64,000 bases of DNA, taken from the IMG/VR virus record IMGVR_UViG_3300035703_000020, positions 1 to 64,000 of that record; one strand, 5' to 3'. The notes beneath the pieces are model-generated. The model saw only the letters and a program-made list of their open reading frames with translations, was not told where the DNA came from and searched no databases. The DNA is from a virus. Of the stretch, positions 40,315-54,194 are shown piece by piece; within the stretch, counting starts at the first letter, position 1, and each line of letters begins with the position of its first letter. A program made the position numbers and the translations under genes.

Positions 40315-41403
40315 ATGAGAAACGAATCCGTCCTGTTCCTGGAGTCGTGGCTGAACCGCCACGGGCTGCCCGCCCTGGCCGAACACGGCGTCCGCGTGAC
40401 GTCCGACGACCGCTACCCCGGCCTCTACTGCCTGAAGTACGGCCCGACGGCCGACAAGTCCTCCGACATCGTGCGGGTCTGCCGCGGCGCGGTGGTCGAG
40501 CTGAGCGAGGCCGACGGCCACCGCGTGGTCGCCTACGCGTTCGACCGCTTCTTCAACGCCGGCGAGCAGCAGGCGGCCGAGATCGACTGGGAGTCCGCCC
40601 GCGTGTTCGAGAAGCACGACGGCAGCCTGATCAAGCTGTTCCACCTCGACGGCCGCGGCTGGATCGTGTCCACCTCCGGCACGGTCGGGGCCGACATCCG
40701 CTTCGGCGAGATGGGCATGACGTTCGAGCAGCTGTTCTGGCGTGCGTTCAAGGCCAACTACGGCGACCCCGGCGAGAAGCTCGACCCCGGAGTCGTCTAC
40801 GTCTTCGAGCTGTGCACGCCCGACAACAAGGTCGTGGTCGACCACAAGTTCGACTACCTGCCGCTGCTGGCGGCGCGCGACGCCGCGACGATGGAGGAGA
40901 TCTACGTCGAGTCGTTCTCAGGCCAGTTCGCGATCGCGACCGAGTACGGCCACTGGTCGGACATCGGCCGCCTGATCGAGTGGGCCAACGAGCGCAAGGG
41001 CTCCGAGCACGAGGGCTTCATCGTCGTCGACAAGCACTGGAACCGCATCAAGGTGAAGGGCGAGTCGTACGTCCAGATGCACCGCGTCAAGGGCAACGGC
41101 GATCCCAGCTTCTTCGAGCTGTGGCGGAACGACGACCTGGTCGAGTTCTGGACCTACTTCCCCGAGTACAAGGAGCGGTTCCAACGCAGGCTGGCCCGCA
41201 TCGAGGACACGGCGTTCTTCGTCGAGGGCTTCGTGCGCGAGTACTCCCACATGGACCAGAAGCAGTTCGCGGCCCAGGTGCTGCAGCGCCACCCCAAGGT
41301 GAGCGGCGCCATGTTCTCGATCCGGTCCGGCAAGGCCGACGGGTTCGTCGGGTGGCTGATGCAGCAGAATGAGAAGAAGTTCGAGGAGATCTTCGGTGAG
41401 TGA
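40315..41403 (+). CDS. T4 Rnl1-like RNA ligase
   Basis: CRG, FDRFFN, EKHDGSLI (motif I), FEL, EGFIV, RIKVK. Confidence 0.85.
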   Translation: MRNESVLFLESWLNRHGLPALAEHGVRVTSDDRYPGLYCLKYGPTADKSSDIVRVCRGAVVELSEADGHRVVAYAFDRFFNAGEQQAAEIDWESARVFEKHDGSLIKLFHLDGRGWIVSTSGTVGADIRFGEMGMTFEQLFWRAFKANYGDPGEKLDPGVVYVFELCTPDNKVVVDHKFDYLPLLAARDAATMEEIYVESFSGQFAIATEYGHWSDIGRLIEWANERKGSEHEGFIVVDKHWNRIKVKGESYVQMHRVKGNGDPSFFELWRNDDLVEFWTYFPEYKERFQRRLARIEDTAFFVEGFVREYSHMDQKQFAAQVLQRHPKVSGAMFSIRSGKADGFVGWLMQQNEKKFEEIFGE

Positions 41404-41783
41404 AGTCAACGTGCCCGACCTCTGGGGAAACAAACCAGAAGTGAACGAGAGCATCGCCCTGCAGCCCGAGGTCAACAGCTGGCAACCGACCAGCAGCTCG
41501 TTCAACATCAGTGTCCCGCAACACGTCGGTCATTGGGTCATCTCGGGTAACTTCCACGTCTATGTCAAGAAACGTCCCAACCGCCTCAACCGCTTCATGA
41601 CAAGGGTGCTGCTCGGGTGGGAGTGGGCAGACGCGTGACTGAAGACCTGAAGTCTGAACCTAAAGTCACTAGGGTTGAGGTCATCGACCACGAAGGCCGA
41701 TCCTATGTCAACTGGGACGAGCGTAACAGGGTCGAACTCTCGTACCAGGATGATGGACGCACACTCAAGATCTTCATAAGCCG

Positions 41784-42413
41784 GTGACGACTGTCCGCTT
41801 CATCGGGGACGTCCACGGAAAGTGGACTCGCTACAAGAAACTCATCAAAAGCTGCCCAAGGTCGATCCAAGTCGGTGACTTCGGAGTAGGATTCTACAAC
41901 CCGCGCACGGAGTCCTACAGCCGTCCGCCGTACGACTCGATGTGCAAGGGCGACCACAAGTTCATCAGAGGCAACCATGATAACCCCACGCAGTGCCGTT
42001 CTCATCCGTTTTGGATCGCTGACGGCTCGCTTCTCGACGGCCGCGTGTTCTGCGTTGGCGGCGCTATGTCGATCGACAAGCACCTCCGCACGGAAGGCTG
42101 GGACTGGTGGCCGGACGAGGAGCTCAGCTACGCCCAGTTCCTCGAACTCATTCAGGCGTACGAGGAGGCCCGCCCGAGCGTGGTGGTCTCGCACGAGTGC
42201 CCGGAGACCGTCGTGAACCATGTGCTCGCCGCCAAGGGCAAGTACAAGTACGACATCCCGAGCATCACCCGGCAGTTCTTCGACAACCTCCTCCACGTCC
42301 ACAAACCCGAGCTGTGGATCCACGGCCACTGGCACTTCGACCACCACACCGTGTTCGACGGGGTCGAGTTCGTGGGCCTCGGGGAGCTATCCCACCTGGA
42401 CCTGGAGGTCTGA
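41784..42413 (+). CDS. Metallophosphoesterase
   Basis: GDVHG, GDFG, GNHD, SHECP, HGHWH. Confidence 0.85.
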   Translation: MTTVRFIGDVHGKWTRYKKLIKSCPRSIQVGDFGVGFYNPRTESYSRPPYDSMCKGDHKFIRGNHDNPTQCRSHPFWIADGSLLDGRVFCVGGAMSIDKHLRTEGWDWWPDEELSYAQFLELIQAYEEARPSVVVSHECPETVVNHVLAAKGKYKYDIPSITRQFFDNLLHVHKPELWIHGHWHFDHHTVFDGVEFVGLGELSHLDLEV

Positions 42414-42657
42414 TGGACACCATCCACAAGGCGATCTACGCCGTTGACCACTATCAGATGACACGCAAGCAGCAGCTCTGGGGCGACGTCTACCGCTGCG
42501 CCTTCTACCGCTGGAAGGCCTCCGACTACCGTTCCGAGGGCGACTACGCCACGATGGTCGCCGCCCTCGGCCTCGGGGACCGGTTCTGGGAGTGACACGG
42601 AGCACCCCTCACCGCCCCGGCGCCAGAAGCACAATACACCAAGAGAAAACCAACACC

Positions 42658-43056
42658 ATGCGAAGCAACGAGTCCCAGGGCATCGTCATCATCGGCCTGC
42701 TGGGCGCGATCGTCGTCGGCGGCCTCGCGTTCGGCCTGCCCCAGTACGGCGTCTACACCAAGACCCTGAACGGCAAGGCCCAGCTGCAGGAAGCCGAGTT
42801 CACCCGCCAGGTGGCGGTGCTCGAGGCCAAGGCCAAGCTCGACTCCGCGAAGGAGCTGGCCCAGGCCGAGGTCGAGCGCGCCAAGGGCGTCGCCCAGGCC
42901 AACCAGATCATCGGCGACAGCCTCAAGGGCAACCGCGAGTACCTCCAGTACCTCTACATCACCGGCCTCGAGGAGGGCAGCCAGAAGGGCAACGTGACGA
43001 TCTACGTGCCGACCGAGGGCGGCATGCCGGTGCCCACCCTCCAGATGAACAAGTGA
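42658..43056 (+). CDS. Membrane-anchored coiled-coil protein (SPFH-like)
   Basis: N-terminal TM helix, EVERAKGVAQANQIIGDSL, IYVPTEGGMP. Confidence 0.6.
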   Translation: MRSNESQGIVIIGLLGAIVVGGLAFGLPQYGVYTKTLNGKAQLQEAEFTRQVAVLEAKAKLDSAKELAQAEVERAKGVAQANQIIGDSLKGNREYLQYLYITGLEEGSQKGNVTIYVPTEGGMPVPTLQMNK

Positions 43057-43673
43057 GGGACCTCGAGATAGCGGCCCGCCTGGCTTCACCCCGGAGGAGT
43101 TCGAGAAGCTTCTCGAGGAACACATCGCGAAGGCCATGTTCGACGCGATCGTCTCCTACCTGAAGAAGACCGCCGACATCATGGACGAGACCGGGCTGAG
43201 GGCGATGACGGCGGACGACCTCCGCCGCGTCGCGCTGGAAATGTCAGTACAAGGCTACGAACCGCAATGACTGGATACACATTCGAGGTGTGGGCCGACC
43301 ATACCATGTCGGGGGCGGACGGCAGGGCCGTCTACGTCGCGCGGGTTGCCGATCCGTTCGGGCTCGTGATAGGCGAGGTGAGGAGCCTCTCCGAGGACAC
43401 AACGCTGAGGCTGGCAAATGAGCTTAAGAAGGGGGACAAGGGGCGCTACGCCGCTGACCACGGTCTCTGCGCCTGAGATGACCCGCATGCAGGAGCTCTG
43501 GGATGTCATGAACGACGTCGGGATCGCCAGTATGACGGTCAACGAGCTCGAGGAGTGGTCGTACCTGATGGCCAAGAGCCTCGAGGGCAAGGGCGACCCC
43601 ACCCACGACGTGCCAGTCAAGTAAGCGCACGCCAAATGACCGGAGTCCCGCGCGAGCGCGGTAGAATTCGGCT

Positions 43674-44420
43674 ATGAGACTGAGAGATCAAACCAACAAG
43701 ATGCCGATCCCAATGGGACCAGCCCCGCCGCGCGAGCAGCGGGGCATTTTACTTACGGACCACCGGCTCGACGAGCGCTCGGTGGTCGTCATCGGCGACG
43801 TGCACGGCTGCGCGCAGGCGCTGCGCGACCTGCTCGTCGACGTCGTCAACACCGGCTGCCAGGTCGTCTTCGTGGGCGACCTGATGGACAGGGGCACCCA
43901 CTTCAAGTCGGTGCTCACGATCGTGCACTCGATGTGCACTGACCCAGAGAAGTGGGGCGTCAGCCGCGCCACGTGCCTGATGGGCAACCACGAGCGGATG
44001 ATCCTCGACGCCTACTCGAACTCGTGGGACGACGGGTGGAGGCTCTGGATGCGGAACGGCGGGCTCGTCGAGGACTTCCAGTACATCAGCGATTCCGGCC
44101 GCTGGGGCTGGCTCAACGGCCTCCCGCTCTGGTACGAGCACGAGAAAAGGGTGGAGTGGGAGGGGGAGGCCTTGCAGCTGCTGGTCACCCACGGGTCGGT
44201 CGAGCCGGGGAAGCCCTTGCGGCAGCAGGACCCGGAGACGCTCTACTGGGGCCGTGCCATCCGCGGCTACTCCCGCGACCACCTGACCGTCCACGGCCAC
44301 ACGATCTGCCACGGCGGCGAGCCGATGCAGTACGACACCGAGACCGGCAAGGTCGTCCGGATCGACACCGGCTCCTACATGACCGGCATCGTGACCGGGC
44401 TGGCGCTGAGGGAGGCGTGA
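43674..44420 (+). CDS. Ser/Thr phosphatase-like metallophosphoesterase
   Basis: GDVHGC, GDLMDRG, GNHE, HGHT, IDTG. Confidence 0.88.
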   Translation: MRLRDQTNKMPIPMGPAPPREQRGILLTDHRLDERSVVVIGDVHGCAQALRDLLVDVVNTGCQVVFVGDLMDRGTHFKSVLTIVHSMCTDPEKWGVSRATCLMGNHERMILDAYSNSWDDGWRLWMRNGGLVEDFQYISDSGRWGWLNGLPLWYEHEKRVEWEGEALQLLVTHGSVEPGKPLRQQDPETLYWGRAIRGYSRDHLTVHGHTICHGGEPMQYDTETGKVVRIDTGSYMTGIVTGLALREA

Positions 44421-44890
44421 TGTTCGACCTCTCGCGCTACGAGCTCATGTGCGAGCTCACGCCCGACGGCGGTAAGCTGCGGCCGTCGTGGGACCGCGCC
44501 TTCTGGGCCAAGAAGGTCCTCAGCAAGCCGCGCTCCGTCGTGTACGTCATCACGATAGGCGACGAGGTGTACAAGATCGGGATGACCGACTGCAACGTCT
44601 CGATGATCATCAACGGCTACTGCAAGAGCGACTTCCTTAGGGACCGGGCCGCGCACCGCGAGGTCCTGGCCGCGGCGGTCGCCGCCGGCGTGCCGGTGCG
44701 CTTCCACGGCTACCTCGTCGAGATGCCCCCGGTGGCCGTCACGCTCCCGAGCGGCGAGACCGCGCAGGTCAGGCCCAGGTGCGGCGGGGAGCTGGAGAGG
44801 GACGCCCTGAGGGCCTACGAGGCGGCCCACGGCGAGCTCCCGAGGGGCAACCACTTCGAGCGGGCGCCCAAGGGCCGGCGTGCCAATTGA
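44420..44890 (+). CDS. GIY-YIG-like nuclease resembling T4 endonuclease II
   Basis: VVYVITIGDEVYKIGMT...ELE...LPRGN. The usual catalytic Arg is not evident. Confidence 0.5.
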   Translation: MFDLSRYELMCELTPDGGKLRPSWDRAFWAKKVLSKPRSVVYVITIGDEVYKIGMTDCNVSMIINGYCKSDFLRDRAAHREVLAAAVAAGVPVRFHGYLVEMPPVAVTLPSGETAQVRPRCGGELERDALRAYEAAHGELPRGNHFERAPKGRRAN

Positions 44891-45159
44891 CGAGGTGCAC
44901 ACCTTTTTAACCGGAGGGTCCCCGGGCGGCCTATGATACTTGTATCGAAACGAATGAGACAAGTGAACGCCATCCAGATCCCCGCCCACGTCAAGAACGC
45001 CCGCCGCGCCGAGAAGCTCGCGGCCGACGAGTTCTGGGCCTACCACGCCGAGATCGCGGGCAAGAAGCCCGTCGACGCCAAGTACAATGCGCTCTTCGAG
45101 AGCATGAATGCCGCGCGCGTCCGCCGCGTCGAGGCCGTCCGCCAGTTCACCCTGGGGCT

Positions 45160-45600
45160 GTGATGCTGATCGCCCACGTGATGATCGGGGCCCCGGGCTC
45201 CGGCAAGTCGACCTCGGCCTCGACGCTGGCCGCGATGTTCGACTCCGTCGTCGTGTCCACCGACGCCGTCCGCGCCGAGCTGTGGGGCGACGAGTCGGTC
45301 CAGGGCGACTGGGCCGAGGTGTCCCGCGAGGTTAACCGGCGCATACGCTGCGCAGCCGCCGCCGGCCGCAACGTCGTGCTCGACGCCACCCACGCCAAGC
45401 GCGCCTACCGCCGCCGCGCGGTCGAGATGCTCCGCGATTCGGGCTACGAGTCCGTCGTGCCCATGCTGGTGCACCCGCCCCTCGAGACGTGCCTGGGCCG
45501 CAACGAGCGGCGCGATCGCGTCGTCCCCGCCGACGTCGTCGAGCGGATGTGGCGCGCGATCGAGCAGAACAAGAACGATATTCAACAGGACTTCGAATGA
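45160..45600 (+). CDS. Polynucleotide kinase-like P-loop protein
   Basis: GAPGSGKST, STDAVR, VLDATH, CLGRNERRDRVVP. Confidence 0.82.
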   Translation: MMLIAHVMIGAPGSGKSTSASTLAAMFDSVVVSTDAVRAELWGDESVQGDWAEVSREVNRRIRCAAAAGRNVVLDATHAKRAYRRRAVEMLRDSGYESVVPMLVHPPLETCLGRNERRDRVVPADVVERMWRAIEQNKNDIQQDFE

Positions 45601-46292
45601 TGACCGAGACATTCCTCATAGGCGACGTGCACTCGCAGGCCGACAACCTCGAGCGGGCCCTGGCGCACGTGCTGAACAGCGGCGGCGAGAGCGCGCGCGT
45701 GATCTTCCTCGGCGACCTCTTCGACTCGCGCTGCGCGACGTCCCAGTCCGCGGAGGTGTACGGCATCGTCCGCTCCTTCCAGGACGCCTACGGCGCCACG
45801 GTGCTCAACTCGAACCACCAGGACAAGCTGCGGCGCTACCTATCCGGGTCGCCGGTGCGGGTCGACCTCGTGCCCGAGCTCGGGCGCACCATCCGCGAGT
45901 TCGAGGAGACCAACATCGACCGCGACGAGCTGCTGGGCTGGCTCGAGTCGTGCCCCTACGGCTACGTCTTCAACGACAGCTCGGGCCGCGAGTACCGCTG
46001 CGCCCACGCCTACTTCCCCAGCTGGGTCGAGCCCGACGGCGCCGTCGTGACCGGCGAGGGCCTGCCCCGCAAGGCGAGGGACCTCATGCTCTACGGCAAG
46101 CGCGACCACGAGACCAAGCAGCGGGTCCGCTGGTGGGAGCACGAGAGCCGCGTGCCCTGGACCCGCGTGTCCGGCCACTACCACTGCGTGCACCTCTCGG
46201 AGCGTTCGCTCGTCCTCGATGGGCAGTGCGGCAACGAGGGCGGCCAGCTGCCGGTCTACGAGGTGAACGCTGGACGCCTCACGTACTTCTGA
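45597..46292 (+). CDS. Metallophosphoesterase (Pnkp phosphatase-like)
   Basis: GDVHS, GDLFD, SNHQDKL.R.L.G, AHA, GHYH. ATGA-coupled to the kinase. Confidence 0.78.
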   Translation: MMTETFLIGDVHSQADNLERALAHVLNSGGESARVIFLGDLFDSRCATSQSAEVYGIVRSFQDAYGATVLNSNHQDKLRRYLSGSPVRVDLVPELGRTIREFEETNIDRDELLGWLESCPYGYVFNDSSGREYRCAHAYFPSWVEPDGAVVTGEGLPRKARDLMLYGKRDHETKQRVRWWEHESRVPWTRVSGHYHCVHLSERSLVLDGQCGNEGGQLPVYEVNAGRLTYF

Positions 46293-46924: not shown

Positions 46925-47563
46925 ATGTCGGAAACCAACCACGACCAGACGAATTCCTCCAGTCCCTACGTGTACGGGGGCTGGCTGATACAGGAGCAAC
47001 TACCAACCCAATGGCACCTACTAGTAGCGGCAATCCTCCTAAACCAGAGCAAAAGGTCCCCGGCCTGGGACCTGTCGCTCTCCGAGCTGTTCTCGCGCTG
47101 GCCCAGCCCCTCCGCCCTCGCATCCGCTGACGGGTCGCTGGAGGAGCTGCTGACCCCGCAGGGGTTCGGCAACGTGAAGGCAAAGCGCCTCAGGCGCATG
47201 TCGGAAGATTACCAATCCTGGGACGGCCAGGACCCGAGAGTCCTCTACGGTTGCGGGCAGTACGCCTACGACTCGTGGAGGATCTTCGTCAGGGGCGACC
47301 GCCCCGCGCCCGAGGAGGTCAACGACGGGGTGCTTGTAAAATTCCTCGAGAGATGCCGTGAGGGATGGCGAATTGGACTACCTCTACCACAGGTGGTCGG
47401 GGATAGCGTGGGAGCGTGGTCTGCTGAACGAGTTCGAGACCCGCTACCGCCACTACAGACAGAGATGCTGGTCGAGAAGAGAGTGTATTCTCGCCGCGGC
47501 AACAGAGCTGAACCTACCGGGCTGGCCCTGAGCGCACGATCGTTGAAACCACTGCGAGAATGA
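46925..47563 (+). CDS. MBD4-like HhH-GPD DNA glycosylase
   Basis: LIQEQL...WHLLVAAILLNQ...RWPSP...LYGCGQYAYDSWRIF with the catalytic Asp retained. Confidence 0.78.
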   Translation: MSETNHDQTNSSSPYVYGGWLIQEQLPTQWHLLVAAILLNQSKRSPAWDLSLSELFSRWPSPSALASADGSLEELLTPQGFGNVKAKRLRRMSEDYQSWDGQDPRVLYGCGQYAYDSWRIFVRGDRPAPEEVNDGVLVKFLERCREGWRIGLPLPQVVGDSVGAWSAERVRDPLPPLQTEMLVEKRVYSRRGNRAEPTGLALSARSLKPLRE

Positions 47564-48423: not shown

Positions 48424-49207
48424 GAACTGGGCGGCCGAGACCGTCAGCGAGAACCGCCGGCTGGGCGAGCTGAAGATGCAGGCCGGGCACGCCATCGTGG
48501 ACGCGCTCGAGTCCTATTACGCGCAGTGGCAGACGAAGCGCACCGACCGCGTGCGCAACGAGTACATGAAGTGGCGCGTCCGCCTGCACCGCAAGTGGAA
48601 CGACCACCCCGAGTTCCTCGAGGAGCTCAACGAGGCCTTCGACATCGGGCTCGACGACGACACCATAGGTAAAACACTCTGGGACATACCCGCGGAAGAC
48701 TCTGTCAACCTCTCTAATGGCTACAATTGGCGCCGAGACTCGGGCTACGCCCTCCGCGGAAGAAGCCGCCGGACGGCTGGAGCCGGTGCTCAAGATCTGG
48801 CGCAGTGAGCACGTTGACCAGTACCGCTGGGTCATGACGTTCGGCCCCGACGCCGAGCGCGATGTATTCCACGGCAACGCCACGACCCTCGAGCAGGCCA
48901 TGAGGGACGTCGAGCACTGCCGGCGGATCCACGAGGGCGCGGTCCCCGAAGCGCACGCCGGCTGAGCCGGTCGGGGCCGGCCCGCGTTAGGATAGATTGT
49001 CCTCACGGGTCACAATGGACTACATCGACACGGCCATCGACCGCATCCACTACCTCGTGGAGCGGGCAGAGGAGCTCTATGGCCACGGCCTACAGACCGA
49101 GGCCGCGCTGCTCCTGGAGCAGGCGTACGAGATCTCGCAGTCCATCAAGCAACCCACGCGCACCCCGGCACTCGCCGGCTAGAATACAGTTGAGCAAAAC
49201 CTATCAG

Positions 49208-52117
49208 ATGGCAACGTCTATGAAGCTGAACGAGCAAGGCTACCCCGTCCTCGAGGACGTGCTGCACAAGAAGCTCTTCGGCTCGGCACGCCGCCCCGCC
49301 CCCAAGAGCTCCACGCTCGAGAGGACGAGGCGGCTTCTCAGTAGGTTCGACATCCCGACCCCGGTCGACTACCCGGATGGGATGTACGACGGCGACCTGC
49401 CCTTCCCCGAGCTGACGGGCGGCTCCATCGAGTCGCACTTCGAGGCCATGGCGGCCGAGTTCGTCGACGACTACAAGGCGCTGGCGGAGGCGTTCGCGAC
49501 GGCGTCCCTGCCGGAGGCCCCGGGCTACGACGACTTCGTATTCCAGCCGGGCTGGACCCGCTATACCAAGGCCGGCGGCAAGTGGAAGACCGAGCTGGTG
49601 CCGCACCCGCTCGAGCGCGCGTTCACGTACGACACCGAGACCTTCGTGACCGCGGGCGCCTTCCCGGTGATCGGCACAGCCCTGTCGGCCGAGGCCGCGT
49701 ACGTGTGGCTCGCCGCCGAGATGTGCGACCCCACGCTGCCGGTCGAGGAGTGGACGCAGCACGACCTGATCCCCCTCGGCAGGGGCAACTTCGTCGTCGG
49801 ACACAACGTCTCCTACGACCGGGTGCGGGCGCGCGACGGCTACACGCTCGCCGAGACCGAGCCCGAGAACTTCTACTTCGACACGCTGTCGGCCCACATC
49901 GCGGTGTCCGGCCTGGCGTCCGGCCAGCGCTGGCTGTACGTGCTCGCCGGCAAGGACCCCGACTCGTTGACCGAGGAGGAGAAGAAGAAGCTGCGGTTCC
50001 GCCCGCGCTGGGCCGACGAGGGCGCGACCAATTCGCTGGTGAACGTCTACAACTTCCACGTCGCGGCCGTGCGCGAGTACTTCGGCGAGGAGGTCCACCG
50101 CATGCAGGACGCCGACAAGGAGATCCGGGACGTCTTCGTGAAGGCGACCGAGATCCACCAGCTCGCCAACCGCCGCGACCTGCTCGAGTACGCCATGCTC
50201 GACGCCTTCTACACCACCGAGCTGTTCCAGGCCATCTGGCCTAAGTACCTCGACTCGACCCCGTCGAAGGTGGCGCTGGCGGGCCACATGTTCCTCAACG
50301 GCTCCCGCATCCCGGTGCCCACCGACTGGCCCAAGTGGATCGAGCAGGCCGAGGAGGTTTTCGCCGAATACAACCGCGAGATGTCCGACATCTGCCACGG
50401 GCTGATCCGCAAGTACGTCGACGAGTGGCGCGCCCTGCTCGACGAAGACATCGCGGCCGTGCAGGCGGCGCTGGACGGCGACGAGCGTGTCAACATCATC
50501 GCGGCCGCCGGGCTCGAGAAGAAGAAGACCATCAAGATCACCGACGTCCTCAAGGGTCTCGACAAGAACGCCGACTTCCCGTGGAGGCACGAATCCAACC
50601 GCTGGGCCGAGCAAGACCCCTGGATGCGCCAGCTCGACTGGACCCCGAGGGCTTACGCAGGCAAGTACGCCTACATGCCCAAGTGGGCCAGCAAGTACCT
50701 GGCCGACGACTCCGAGCGCATCACCAACAAGGCCAACGTGTCGCACCTGCTGCTCAAGCTGAAGTGGGAGGGCTCGCCTGTCATCCTCACCAAGGGCGAC
50801 GGCTGGTGCTACCACAACGAGGAGGGCAAGCTAGAGAAGATCCCGCACCCGAAAGGCAATGGGGATAATGTGGGCGTGTTGCTGTCGAAGGATTTTTTGG
50901 TGGACATGGAGGTGGGGAGGCTAAGTAGCGACCTCCCCGAGGCTAAGCGCGCGCTCGACATCGCCAACGCCACGTCCTACTGGACGTCGGTCCGCAAGCG
51001 GGTCCACGACCGGATCTTCATGGACGTGGAGAACCCCCACGGCGAGGGCTGGTGCATGATGATGCCGGAGATCATCGCCCACGGCGCGGTGACCCGCCGC
51101 ACGGTGGAGTCACTGATGGTCACGATGTGCTCGACCAAGGGGCACCGCATCGGCACCGAGCTGAAGACTCGGATCCAGTGCCCGCCCGGCTGGAAGATCG
51201 TCGGAGCCGACTTCGACGGCCAGGAGCTGCAGATCGCGAGCATCTACGCCGACGCGTGGGAGGGCGGGTTTATCGGCGCCTCGCCAATGGCGCACACCGT
51301 GCTGTCCGGCTCGAAGGAGAAGGGCACCGATGCCCACACGAAGCTCGCTAAGGCCATCGACACCAACCGCGACGTCGCTAAGGGCGTCGGCTTCGCCATG
51401 CTCTACGGCGCCGGCGTGCGGACGATCGCCAACACGATCAAGAAGACGTACAAGGACCGGAGCGCGACCGAGCTGAGGCAGTTCGGCAACCGAGCCCTCG
51501 CCTTCAAGAAGGGCAAGAAGTCGCCCGACGGGTACTACGAGGGCGGCAGCGACAGCGGCTGCTACAACTACATGGAGGGCATCGCCCTGCGGACCAAGTG
51601 CCCGACGCTGCCCTGCCTTGGGACCAAGATCTCGACCGCCCTGCGGCCCTCCGCCGTGGGGGACGACTTCCACACCGGCCGCATCAACTGGACGATCCAG
51701 TCGTCCGGCGCAGAGATGCTCGCCGTGATCCTCACGGCCACGCACTGGCTGGCCCGCCGGTTCAAGATCCCGGCCCAGTTTATCCTCAGCATCCACGACG
51801 AGCTGTGGTGGATGGTGCCCGAGCGGTACGCCGAGAGCTTCTGTGTCGTCTTCCAGATGGCGCACCTGTACTCGTGGGCCCGCTTCCAGGCGAGCGTGGG
51901 CATGTGCGACGTGCCGCTCAGCCGCGCCTTCTTCTCGTCCGTCGCCATCGACGAGCGGCTGAGGAAGTCCGTGCACGAGTGCACCAAGACGCCGTCCAAC
52001 CCGGGCGGGGCGGACGAGCCCGACGGGGCCGAGTACTCGATGGCCCAGATGGCTGAGCTGGGCTGGATCAAGAAGCTCCGGACGCGGGGCGAGATGATCA
52101 CCAAGGGGCTGATTTGA
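49208..52117 (+). CDS. Family A DNA polymerase, mitochondrial Pol-gamma-like
   Basis: YDTET, VGHNVSYDRVR, DTLSAHIAVSG, VGADFDGQEL, RDVAK...YGAG, RINWTIQSSG, SIHDE. Confidence 0.92.
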   Translation: MATSMKLNEQGYPVLEDVLHKKLFGSARRPAPKSSTLERTRRLLSRFDIPTPVDYPDGMYDGDLPFPELTGGSIESHFEAMAAEFVDDYKALAEAFATASLPEAPGYDDFVFQPGWTRYTKAGGKWKTELVPHPLERAFTYDTETFVTAGAFPVIGTALSAEAAYVWLAAEMCDPTLPVEEWTQHDLIPLGRGNFVVGHNVSYDRVRARDGYTLAETEPENFYFDTLSAHIAVSGLASGQRWLYVLAGKDPDSLTEEEKKKLRFRPRWADEGATNSLVNVYNFHVAAVREYFGEEVHRMQDADKEIRDVFVKATEIHQLANRRDLLEYAMLDAFYTTELFQAIWPKYLDSTPSKVALAGHMFLNGSRIPVPTDWPKWIEQAEEVFAEYNREMSDICHGLIRKYVDEWRALLDEDIAAVQAALDGDERVNIIAAAGLEKKKTIKITDVLKGLDKNADFPWRHESNRWAEQDPWMRQLDWTPRAYAGKYAYMPKWASKYLADDSERITNKANVSHLLLKLKWEGSPVILTKGDGWCYHNEEGKLEKIPHPKGNGDNVGVLLSKDFLVDMEVGRLSSDLPEAKRALDIANATSYWTSVRKRVHDRIFMDVENPHGEGWCMMMPEIIAHGAVTRRTVESLMVTMCSTKGHRIGTELKTRIQCPPGWKIVGADFDGQELQIASIYADAWEGGFIGASPMAHTVLSGSKEKGTDAHTKLAKAIDTNRDVAKGVGFAMLYGAGVRTIANTIKKTYKDRSATELRQFGNRALAFKKGKKSPDGYYEGGSDSGCYNYMEGIALRTKCPTLPCLGTKISTALRPSAVGDDFHTGRINWTIQSSGAEMLAVILTATHWLARRFKIPAQFILSIHDELWWMVPERYAESFCVVFQMAHLYSWARFQASVGMCDVPLSRAFFSSVAIDERLRKSVHECTKTPSNPGGADEPDGAEYSMAQMAELGWIKKLRTRGEMITKGLI

Positions 52118-52504
52118 CCAAGCTGGAACGAGCCATAGACGCCCTCTACCGCGGGCGCTGCAACCTGATCCAGGCGTGCCAGCTGGCCGAGATCGACCAG
52201 GAGACGATGAAGCGCCTCCTGCTCGACAAGGTCCGATGCGCGCCGTCCCACCCCATCCAACTGACCTTTGACCTCCGGAGCGACGACCAATGAGCAAGAA
52301 GAAGGCCTGCTTCTACACCATCCACCAACTGGCCGCGAACCGCCCGTACGTGACCATCGAGTTCTACGACCACAAGGAGCGGCGCATGCTCAGCTCCGTG
52401 GACGTCGTGCTCAACCTGGAGTACCATGACGATCACCAGATCGGCTCGTTCGTGACCTCACGCTGAGCGCCCGCGAGCACAATAGACCCAGGAAAAACCG
52501 CACC

Positions 52505-53074
52505 ATGCTCATCATCGTCTCCGGCCCCGACCGCGTCGGCAAGTCGACCCTGATCAACGCCATGGCCGAGGAGCTCGGCCGCGACATCACCTACGTCGCC
52601 CACCACGGCCCGCCGCCAAAGACCAACGACAACATCTTCGACGTCTACCGCGACACCATCCAGGACTGGAAGTGGTCCGGCAAGCCGTACGCGATCTTCG
52701 ACCGCGCGTACCCCTGCAGCTACATCCTCGAGCAGCACCGCCGGCGCAACGCGGGCCACTTCGAGGACGTCATCGACTTCGAGATCGAGCTGATGGACGC
52801 CGTCGACTCCGTCGTGCACCTCGGCGTCTTCCGGCCCTGGCACTGGTCGGCGCCGCTGCACGTCGAGGAGGTCCGCGAGGAGAACCCCGGCGCCGCCCCG
52901 TGGCTGATCCGCGACGAGTACATCGCCCGCATGCAGGAGCACCAGATCTACACCGAGCAGCTCCTCAACTTCTACGACAACATCTCGATGTTCCCCAACG
53001 CCCGCATCGAGAACGAGGAGACGGTCGGGTCGATGGCGCTCGCCCGCTGCCGCGAGGCGCTGCGGAGGTCCTGA
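52505..53074 (+). CDS. dNMP/thymidylate kinase-like P-loop protein
   Basis: IIVSGPDRVGKSTL, IFDR. Confidence 0.7.
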   Translation: MLIIVSGPDRVGKSTLINAMAEELGRDITYVAHHGPPPKTNDNIFDVYRDTIQDWKWSGKPYAIFDRAYPCSYILEQHRRRNAGHFEDVIDFEIELMDAVDSVVHLGVFRPWHWSAPLHVEEVREENPGAAPWLIRDEYIARMQEHQIYTEQLLNFYDNISMFPNARIENEETVGSMALARCREALRRS

Positions 53075-53291
53075 TGCCCTTCCCGATGCCGCAGGACCCG
53101 GGATTCCTGCTCGAGTACTGCCGGGAGTGGATCGACGACGCCAACGAGCGATACGACAAGGGCATGAGAGCCATGGCCCAGGAGAGCATGCGCTCGGCCG
53201 CCCAGCTCTACATCCAGCTCCCCCGCGGCTACAGCAACCCCGAGCTGGAAAAATACTACCAGGAGACCCTCAAGAAGGTGTACGGACAAGT

Positions 53292-54194
53292 ATGATCATC
53301 CGCGAAATGAGCAAGAAACCCGCGCACGTCGTCCACTTCGGCGATCACGTCATCAAGAGCGAAAACTGGGACTACGTCTATGGCGAGTACCTGTTCGACA
53401 TCATGACCCACGGCGAGCAGTTCGTCGGACGCAACGGCGAGACGAAGGCCGCCTTCGGCTGCTCGGCGCGCGTCGACCTGCGCTGCGGGTTCCCGCTCAC
53501 CAGGCTCCGCAAGATGCCGTGGAAGAACCTCGTCCGCGAGTTCCTCTTCGACGTCGGCTTCAACACCAACGTCGAGGCGCTCGGCCCCGCCAAGCACTTC
53601 TGGGACTTCCTCGCCGACGAGAACGGCGAGCTCGGCGCGTCGGCCTACTGCAGGCAGTGGCGCCAGTGGCCGCCCTCTGCCCAGGGCGCGGAGGTGCCCA
53701 ACGAGACGCTCGAGACCGGGCGGCCGGTCGACCAGCTCCGGGACGTCGTCCACCTGCTGAACAACCACCCCAACTCCAGGCAGGCGACCGTCATCACCCA
53801 CAACCCCACCGCGATCGACCCCGCCTGCCCTCCCTGCCACATCGCGATGCAGTTCGCGCCGTCCAAGGACGGGTGGCTCGACCTGATGGTCCCGGCCCGC
53901 TCCAACGACATGGTGGTCGGCTTCCCGCTGGACATCGCCCGCTACGCGCTGATCCTCAAGGCGGTCGCGATGATGACCTGCAAGGCGGCCCGCTACGTGT
54001 ACATGCCGAGCGCCAACTCGCACATCTACGAGAACTGCTACGATCTCGTCGACGAAATGATCGAGCGCGAGCCCAAGCCGGAGTGCCAGGTGCGGCTGAC
54101 CCACGCGCCGCTCAGCTTCAAGGAGCTGACGCTCGACAGCTTCGAGCTGACGGGCTACGACCCGCACCCGGCCATCAAGGTCGCCGTCAACTGA
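53292..54194 (+). CDS. Thymidylate synthase-family enzyme with Asp at the base-specificity position
   Basis: PPCH, RSNDMVVGFPLDIARY, HIYEN, YDPHPAIK. Confidence 0.88.
   Translation: MIIREMSKKPAHVVHFGDHVIKSENWDYVYGEYLFDIMTHGEQFVGRNGETKAAFGCSARVDLRCGFPLTRLRKMPWKNLVREFLFDVGFNTNVEALGPAKHFWDFLADENGELGASAYCRQWRQWPPSAQGAEVPNETLETGRPVDQLRDVVHLLNNHPNSRQATVITHNPTAIDPACPPCHIAMQFAPSKDGWLDLMVPARSNDMVVGFPLDIARYALILKAVAMMTCKAARYVYMPSANSHIYENCYDLVDEMIEREPKPECQVRLTHAPLSFKELTLDSFELTGYDPHPAIKVAVN

Follow-up and report, generated by a model that had tools for sequence, protein, structure and literature searches.

A dCMP-type thymidylate synthase homolog and its kinase partner suggest 5-methylcytosine in the DNA of a cyanophage

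Introduction

Why should a phage that encodes the thymidylate synthase (TS) ThyX carry a ThyA homolog as well, and on which nucleotide does that homolog act? The question is raised by the window analysed here, the first 64 kb of the IMG/VR record IMGVR_UViG_3300035703_000020 (149,878 bp, with direct terminal repeats), in which a ThyA-family gene follows closely on a gene for a small P-loop kinase. An initial annotation, made from the letters of the DNA, had proposed that this enzyme acts on deoxycytidine monophosphate (dCMP) to make its 5-methyl or 5-hydroxymethyl derivative, and that the genome is probably cytosine-modified. The genes of the record lie nearly all on the plus strand, at a GC content of about 65%, and bulk Pfam scans, which covered 86 open reading frames (ORFs) of at least 100 amino acids (aa) outside 55-92 kb, revealed genes typical of cyanophages, namely two for photosystem reaction centres and those for PhoH, ribonucleotide reductase, SpeD and several 2-oxoglutarate (2OG)-Fe(II) oxygenases. 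The source genome is a cyanophage related to Synechococcus phage S-CBWM1.

The products of TS homologs can be predicted in part from a few residues, which are numbered here as in Escherichia coli ThyA unless otherwise indicated. At position 177, Asn selects deoxyuridine monophosphate (dUMP) and Asp selects dCMP (PMC8670742); the exchange of Asn for Asp switches a TS to dCMP and correlates with contigs carrying modified cytosine (PMC8670742, PMC13326640), and in MetaGPA, no position was associated with such contigs more strongly than 177 (PMC8670742). Predicting cytosine modification from Asp177 is already established practice (PMC8670742; bioRxiv 10.1101/2024.12.05.627091); here, the residue occurs in a distinct, uncharacterised clade that is common in cyanophages. 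In hydroxymethylases, an acidic residue (Asp or Glu; Asp145 in T4) precedes the catalytic Cys by three positions, a Ser-x-Tyr motif is present and the C-terminal tail is missing; in T4 dCMP hydroxymethylase (dCH, gp42), Asp145 activates water, and the D145N mutant yields no 5-hydroxymethyl-dCMP (PMC6400193). The rule concerning Leu143 is repeated in PMC13326640. In 5-hydroxy-dCMP synthases of the RB69 gp48 type, Asn replaces Asp169, and cognate deoxynucleoside monophosphate (dNMP) kinases are known partners of dCMP-type TS homologs, as in T4, RB69 and DLP3 (PMC13326640). The TS homologs of Xp12 and PaMx74 are verified or inferred makers of 5-methyl-dCMP (bioRxiv 10.1101/2024.12.05.627091).

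Results

The ThyA homolog keeps the TS scaffold and carries Asp at position 177

The ORF of the ThyA homolog was listed from a GTG at 53127, and its likeliest start is the ATG at 53292, which overlaps the stop codon of the small ORF upstream (ATGA). The resulting protein matches PF00303 with an E value of 2.7e-55 over profile positions 3-264 of 266 and E. coli ThyA with an E value of about 1e-36 (HMMER). As the initial annotation had stated, the segment around position 177 aligns with E. coli ThyA without gaps (RSNDMVVGFPLDIARY versus RSCDVFLGLPFNIASY, HMMER), and this places Asp214 of the phage enzyme at the position of Asn177 and of T4 gp42 Asp179 (Table 1). The catalytic Cys146 is retained together with Arg21, Glu58, Trp80, Tyr94, Arg126, His147, Arg166, Ser167, Asp169, His207 and Tyr209, so that every residue by which we judged membership of the PF00303 superfamily (Cys146, Arg21, Glu58, Tyr94, Arg166, Asp169, His207 and Tyr209) is present. 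The C-terminal tail, HPAIKVAVN in the phage and HPGIKAPVAI in E. coli, is also TS-like and conserved, again as had been claimed. Relative to the E. coli enzyme, the substitutions are W83L, R127Q, L143C, C168N, F176L and N177D; a canonical ThyA that forms deoxythymidine monophosphate (dTMP) would have Asn177 and the Leu143/Trp83 shield, and the phage enzyme has Asp, Cys and Leu at these positions.

The structural comparison gave the same picture of a TS scaffold. The AlphaFold2 (AF2) model has a mean predicted local distance difference test (pLDDT) score of 87.7 and a template modelling (TM) score of 0.89-0.90 to E. coli TS, and all 49 matches listed by Foldseek against the PDB were thymidylate synthases, among them 1NJC, the Lactobacillus casei N229D mutant with dCMP.

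Asp214 is a family trait. It is invariant in an alignment of 18 family members, as are Cys179, Pro180, Pro181, Cys182 and His183 around the catalytic Cys and Asp206, the equivalent of Asp169, and Asp177 is also present in every row of the larger clade described below (28-29 rows). Because of this invariance across family and clade, Asp214 is neither a sequencing error nor a chance change.

The homolog belongs to a distinct clade with the cyanophage S-TIM5 enzyme

At least 269 metagenomic homologs share 60-91% identity with the phage enzyme; among cultured phages, TIM5-like cyanophages have the nearest relatives, whose genes are annotated as 'ThyA' and which share 41% identity with it. When 1.84 billion representative proteins were searched, the closest homologs carried Cys143/His147/Asp169/Asp177, and canonical ThyA sequences with Leu/His/Asp/Asn at these positions began at about 36-39% identity; the canonical combination was found in 118 of about 160 aligned rows. 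A quick maximum-likelihood tree was built from 82 rows; fragments were excluded, and only 40 canonical representatives were kept. In this tree, S-TIM5 ThyA and a few variants with Ile, Gln or Val at position 143 grouped with the query family in one clade with a Shimodaira-Hasegawa-like approximate likelihood ratio test (SH-aLRT) support of 98, apart from canonical ThyA and from Xp12/PaMx74. T4 gp42, M6 gp58 and Xp12 lie on long branches, and their exact placement is unreliable. Across the clade, position 143 is occupied by Cys, Ile, Gln, Val or Leu and never by Asp or Glu.

The S-TIM5 enzyme (gp076, annotated as thymidylate synthase) resembles the present one in its clade, in its identity of about 41% and in the combination Cys143/His147/Asp169/Asp177, and its genome likewise encodes ThyX and a homolog of the kinase, although this lies about 36 kb from the enzyme gene instead of adjoining it. 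In the literature searched, we found no paper that notes the Asp of S-TIM5 ThyA or tests S-TIM5 DNA, and no report of cytosine modification for S-TIM5-like or S-CBWM1-like phages.

Signature residues favour a methylated product

If dCMP is the substrate, three kinds of product can be compared with the published signatures. A 5-hydroxy-dCMP synthase is not indicated, because Asp169 is kept (Asp206) where such enzymes have Asn. The Xp12-type methyltransferase is matched in that Asp177 occurs together with an intact Asp169; the phage enzyme does not belong to the Xp12/PaMx74 clade, for which our alignments give Asn143 and Pro147, and its gene does not lie in a deaminase/dihydrofolate reductase (DHFR) cluster.

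The third candidate, a dCMP hydroxymethylase that makes 5-hydroxymethyl-dCMP in the manner of T4 gp42 and thereby places 5-hydroxymethylcytosine (5hmC) in the phage DNA, has several features in common with the enzyme. Asp177 is shared with gp42 and is preceded by RSND in both; the residues at positions 83 and 143 are smaller than Trp and Leu, as they are in T4 dCH (Val85 and Asp145; PMC6400193); and a Ser lies two residues ahead of the conserved Tyr94 (Ser117-Ala-Tyr119), where the hydroxymethylase signature has Ser or Thr. Additionally, no phage DHFR was found, which would suit a reaction that releases tetrahydrofolate. Nevertheless, the residue three positions before the catalytic Cys, which is Asp in T4 gp42 and M6 gp58 according to our alignments and the loss of which abolishes 5-hydroxymethyl-dCMP formation in T4, is Cys179 here and is not acidic in any clade member. 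The C-terminal tail, which dCH lacks, is retained, His147 is kept where T4 has Thr, T4 dCH is not among the 49 Foldseek matches listed, and no glycosyltransferase appears among the Pfam matches listed for the ORFs scanned. We therefore regard a hydroxymethylated product as unlikely, albeit the most serious of the alternatives.

A methylated product is preferred over a hydroxymethylated one because the hydroxymethylase signature is incomplete, the enzyme retains the tail by which the active site is closed off for hydride transfer, and its model resembles TS structures. With the signatures of the hydroxymethylase and of the 5-hydroxy-dCMP synthase both failing, the enzyme most resembles a natural counterpart of an N177D TS, which points to a dCMP methylase. 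The engineered dCMP methylases E. coli ThyA N177D and L. casei TS N229D share with it the TS scaffold, the tail, His147, Tyr94 and Glu58; unlike these mutants, the phage family carries the additional conserved changes L143C, W83L and F176L, and often R127Q. Judged from its residues, a dCMP-specific role other than dTMP formation is supported for this enzyme, while the assignment of the methyl product is held only moderately.

ThyX leaves the ThyA homolog free for another role

The genome encodes a full-length ThyX at positions 117146-117880 of the record (E value 6.6e-42), so the ThyA homolog, a second TS-family enzyme, is not needed for dTMP. S-TIM5 and S-CBWM1 also have ThyX, and so do 8 of 18 related contigs, one of which is the only 100%-complete genome among them (TIM5-like); in the related contigs, the gene lies mostly near contig ends. 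As for its own affinities, the phage ThyX finds its best match (78%) on a contig that was assigned to a Microbacteriaceae metagenome-assembled genome and is probably a misbinned phage contig; other matches, at 39-47%, come from Chlorobi, Bdellovibrio and Chloroflexota, and no close cyanobacterial match was found among species-representative genomes.

These findings bear on a second alternative, in which the enzyme and kinase serve the nucleotide pool only: dTMP would be made from dUMP, or 5-methyl-dCMP would be deaminated to dTMP, the kinase would be a thymidylate kinase and the DNA would be unmodified. The sequence, fold and tail of the enzyme are indeed very TS-like, the kinase fold resembles thymidylate kinase, a dCMP-deaminase-family gene lies at about 131.1 kb (77 kb from the ThyA homolog), no dCTPase was found, and the thymidine of Xp12 derives partly from 5-methylcytosine (5mC) nucleotides (bioRxiv 10.1101/2024.12.05.627091). 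Against this, the genome and its relatives already have ThyX as a source of dTMP, and a deep clade shows Asp without exception at the position where canonical ThyA has Asn. Mutants with Asn changed to Asp no longer prefer dUMP, according to earlier work that PMC8670742 cites, and the DNA glycosylase that this phage has in common with 5mC phages would be left with no role. A purely metabolic function consequently appears improbable to us.

A P-loop kinase accompanies the enzyme

The initial annotation had placed a dNMP kinase-like gene two ORFs upstream of the ThyA homolog, and the kinase gene indeed lies there, with a single 73-aa ORF in between. The AF2 model of the kinase (pLDDT 93.3) matched PPK2 and thymidylate kinases in Foldseek with TM scores of 0.55-0.66, as well as other nucleoside monophosphate kinases, and its best viral structural match was an uncharacterised S-TIM5 protein (TM 0.83). 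No Pfam or NCBIfam model reached its cut-off for this protein, and a comparison with PDB sequences at E values up to 10 returned zero matches.

The association of the two genes is consistent. Wherever a close-family IMG/VR locus extends upstream of the enzyme (15 loci), the kinase is its immediate upstream neighbour, and it also adjoins the enzyme in one locus with an otherwise different gene order (L014). A kinase homolog was found in 17 of 18 enzyme-carrying contigs, including TIM5-like genomes in which it lies tens of kilobases away. Such pairing is as expected if an unusual nucleotide made by a TS homolog requires a dedicated kinase, and we predict that the protein is the cognate kinase for modified dCMP. 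In a separate observation, the record IMGVR_UViG_3300006641_004726, a provirus according to IMG/VR, contains two kinase paralogs (E values 9e-60 and 5e-50) and a ThyA homolog.

The small ORFs around the kinase are conserved as well. Homologs of the 73-aa ORF, with 55-94% identity, occupy the same position in eight loci; it gave a single Pfam match, with an E value of 0.082 that is far below the cut-off, and none in PHROGs. The two ORFs of 59 and 58 aa upstream of the kinase had no match in a Pfam search. All three may belong to the kinase/enzyme module.

An MBD4-like glycosylase links the phage to known 5mC phages

A gene for an HhH-GPD DNA glycosylase lies 6 kb upstream of the enzyme. Against PDB sequences (phmmer), it matched 15 MBD4 sequences at about 6e-11 and endonuclease III only at 6e-3, and it reached 24.4 bits against PF00730, slightly under the cut-off of 26.2. 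As in MBD4-type enzymes, the Asp of the G-x-G-x-Y-x-x-D-S motif, which we take to be the catalytic residue, is kept. MBD4 removes T or 5-hydroxymethyluracil (hmU) opposite G.

In a tblastn search of 50,697 phage records, homologs of this glycosylase were found only in the TIM5-like cyanophage S-TIM54 and in Xp12-like phages, all of the latter carrying an Xp12-type TS homolog, and none were found in T4-type phages. Xp12 gp61 (46973-47455 of its record), annotated as 'hypothetical protein', is an MBD4-like glycosylase that is 36% identical to the window protein; it adjoins a hydrolase and the dCMP-methylating TS homolog, an arrangement shared by four IMG/VR contigs. A word-based protein search returned close relatives only. 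A pattern scan of viral contigs for distant MBD4-like genes yielded five loci, of which one is a close relative of the present phage; each of the four distant homologs (32-38% identity) has an Xp12-type TS homolog at a distance of no more than about 1 kb. The gp61-type glycosylase appears to be a regular, though unannotated, component of the 5mC gene cluster, and the recurrence of MBD4-like glycosylases with dCMP-type TS homologs in unrelated phages suggests dedicated repair for 5mC-rich genomes.

MBD4-type glycosylases also act on hmU:G, which counts in favour of 5hmC. The confinement of the phage homologs to Xp12-type and TIM5-type phages and their absence from T4-type phages nonetheless tilt the reading towards 5mC.

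A gene of the thymidine hypermodification toolkit is not a conserved partner

A last alternative is suggested by a gene at 38285-39202 that encodes an HMUDK_hel / aGPT-Pplase clade 1 protein (PF18723, E value 8e-21; the ESM Atlas agrees), two genes downstream of a 2OG-Fe(II) oxygenase gene (PF13759, E value 7.7e-21) and separated from it by an 80-aa ORF. Here, the ThyA homolog would perform the first step of cytosine hypermodification, its 5-substituted cytosine would be processed by the HMUDK_hel protein and the oxygenase, and the kinase would act on DNA. M6 gp55, from a thymidine hypermodification cluster, matches PF18723 too, and M6 has a 187-aa kinase near its TS homolog.

Several results speak against such a pathway. 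PF18723 occurs in only 1 of 28 enzyme contigs and is absent from TIM5-like genomes, for which reason the HMUDK_hel gene was rejected as a conserved partner of the system. Neither a 5-hydroxymethyldeoxyuridine (5-hmdU) DNA kinase (PF18748) nor an amino acid:DNA transferase (PF18724) was found anywhere in the genome at E values up to 1, although PF18748 is matched by M6 gp54 (E value 7.7e-18). The window kinase was itself considered as a 5-hmdU DNA kinase and rejected, since BLAST and hhalign comparisons showed that it shares only the P-loop with M6 gp54. Moreover, the hydroxymethylase signature is absent from the ThyA homolog, and M6 gp55 is dispensable in vitro (PMC8989533). It is accordingly very improbable that the ThyA homolog opens a hypermodification pathway, and we give equally little credence to the proposal that the Cys143/His147/Asp177 clade, instead of simply repeating the Xp12 chemistry, starts cytosine hypermodification in this phage through the oxygenase and HMUDK_hel genes at 37369-39202. 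If this were true, tools known to date from thymidine hypermodification alone would be extended to cytosine. The oxygenase/80-aa ORF/HMUDK_hel arrangement was also seen on a 5.1 kb Logan contig.

Other features of the genome

The Pol-gamma-like family A DNA polymerase upstream of the module serves here as context; it shares 66% DNA identity with the polymerase of S-CBWM1. The region 40315-46292 is likely an RNA repair set, with a T4 Rnl1-like RNA ligase (40315-41403), three calcineurin-like phosphoesterases (41784-42413, 43674-44420 and 45489-46292) and a polynucleotide-kinase-like AAA_33/Zeta_toxin P-loop kinase (45163-45600). The ORF at 44420-44890 was considered as a DenA-like nuclease; it matched no Pfam or NCBIfam family, its one match being to an 'endonuclease' PHROG (E value 4.4e-4), and it was not used as evidence. 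Further matches of the bulk Pfam scans, from 92-150 kb, were a gene of the tryptophan-halogenase family (PF04820, E value 2.5e-101), one with a protein-kinase domain, two with sigma-70 region 2 and one for a pyrimidine dimer glycosylase. No DNA methyltransferase was among the matches listed for the ORFs scanned.

Table 1. Features of the locus, with positions in the 64-kb window
Feature	Position	Strand	Basis
ThyA-family enzyme, 300 aa, predicted dCMP C5-methylase	53292..54194	+	PF00303, E. coli TS alignment, AF2 model
GAC codon, Asp214 (E. coli Asn177 / T4 gp42 Asp179 position)	53931..53933	+	alignments; family-invariant
C-P-P-C: Cys179 (E. coli Leu143 position), catalytic Cys182 (Cys146), then His183 (His147)	53826..53837	+	
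P-loop kinase, 189 aa, thymidylate kinase/PPK2-like fold, predicted cognate kinase for modified dCMP	52505..53074	+	AF2, Foldseek, co-occurrence
73-aa ORF between kinase and ThyA homolog	53074..53295	+	conserved at same place
Two small ORFs (59 and 58 aa) upstream of kinase	52114..52466	+	conserved in 10-11 related loci
MBD4-like HhH-GPD DNA glycosylase, predicted T:G (or hmU:G) repair after modified-C deamination	46925..47563	+	
Pol-gamma-like family A DNA polymerase	49079..52117	+	PF18136 E 5e-58, PF00476; context only

Discussion

The account that we consider best, with somewhat better than even confidence, is that the ThyA homolog methylates dCMP, that the kinase feeds the product towards DNA and that the phage DNA carries 5mC for some or all of its cytosine. 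In this account, the folate-dependent TS homolog would use dCMP in place of dUMP and most likely yield 5-methyl-dCMP, which the upstream P-loop kinase would phosphorylate; host enzymes would complete the triphosphate, and the phage polymerase would incorporate it, so that 5mC would take the place of some or all cytosine. The dTMP would come from the phage ThyX, with the phage dCMP deaminase available to provide dUMP, and the MBD4-like glycosylase would remove thymine from the T:G mismatches left by deamination of 5mC. A phage with methylated cytosines would gain from such an enzyme. Taken together, the phage DNA probably contains 5mC.

The initial annotation is thereby narrowed. Its proposal of a dCMP role is supported by the conserved Asp, ThyX, the kinase and the glycosylase, and of the two products that it named, the evidence leans to the 5-methyl form, the hydroxymethyl signature not being borne out. 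A cytosine-modified genome in the sense of incorporation of modified cytosine is supported as a prediction; complete replacement is not, because no dCTPase was found. The suggested tie to the Pol-gamma-like polymerase lacks specificity, since S-CBWM1 shares the polymerase and has neither the enzyme nor the kinase.

Several points weigh against the methylation model. Through the substitutions W83L, L143C and F176L, three residues that protect the active site have become smaller, and water might enter; the hydroxymethylase signature includes a Ser at the position two before Tyr94, as is present here (PMC6400193); and the Xp12 and PaMx74 methylases differ from the phage enzyme at the signature positions, having Asn143, Pro147 and a short tail. 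The product is extrapolated, as the clade contains no characterised enzyme. Searches of the 149,878-bp genome at E values up to 1 found no DHFR (PF00186) and no dCTPase of the MazG (PF03819), PRA-PH (PF01503) or dimeric dUTPase (dUTPase_2, PF08761) type, and whereas Xp12/PaMx74 cluster the enzyme with dCMP deaminase, DHFR and pyrophosphohydrolase, none of these adjoins the enzyme here. Recycling of dihydrofolate would therefore depend on the host; this is possible, since a control genome, that of Synechococcus elongatus, contains both ThyX and DHFR. Finally, of 28 related contigs, many of which are fragments, only 7 contain the MBD4-like gene, and hence the glycosylase is an accessory rather than a fixed partner.

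Compared with known systems, the phage enzyme resembles the Xp12/PaMx74 TS homologs in its PF00303 fold, catalytic Cys, Asp169, Asp177 and predicted product, and in the MBD4-like glycosylase encoded in the genomes; it differs from them in sequence (about 25% identity, a different clade), in having Cys143 and His147 and a longer C-terminus than Xp12, and in its genomic partner, which is a kinase here and a dCMP deaminase, DHFR and hydrolase in Xp12. With T4 gp42 and the dNMP kinase gp1, the present pair shares the specificity-determining Asp, the RSND motif and the general design of a TS homolog and a kinase that would feed modified dCTP to the polymerase. The T4 enzyme is set apart by Asp145, by Thr in place of His147 and by its lack of a tail (PMC6400193), and T4 also has a dCTPase and glucosyltransferases, neither of which our searches and scans revealed here.

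These comparisons define a third sequence lineage of dCMP-modifying TS homologs, with Cys143, His147 and an intact tail. It fits the published residue rules imperfectly and is therefore a useful test case for them, and the cultured relatives S-TIM5 and S-TIM54 make the prediction directly testable. If the prediction is correct, widespread cyanomyoviruses, among them the marine TIM5-like phages and the freshwater or estuarine relatives of S-CBWM1, would replace cytosine at least partly with 5mC. This would affect the escape of these phages from host restriction and other DNA-targeting defences, the behaviour of their DNA in methylation-sensitive library preparation and analysis, and the folate and one-carbon demand of infected picocyanobacteria.

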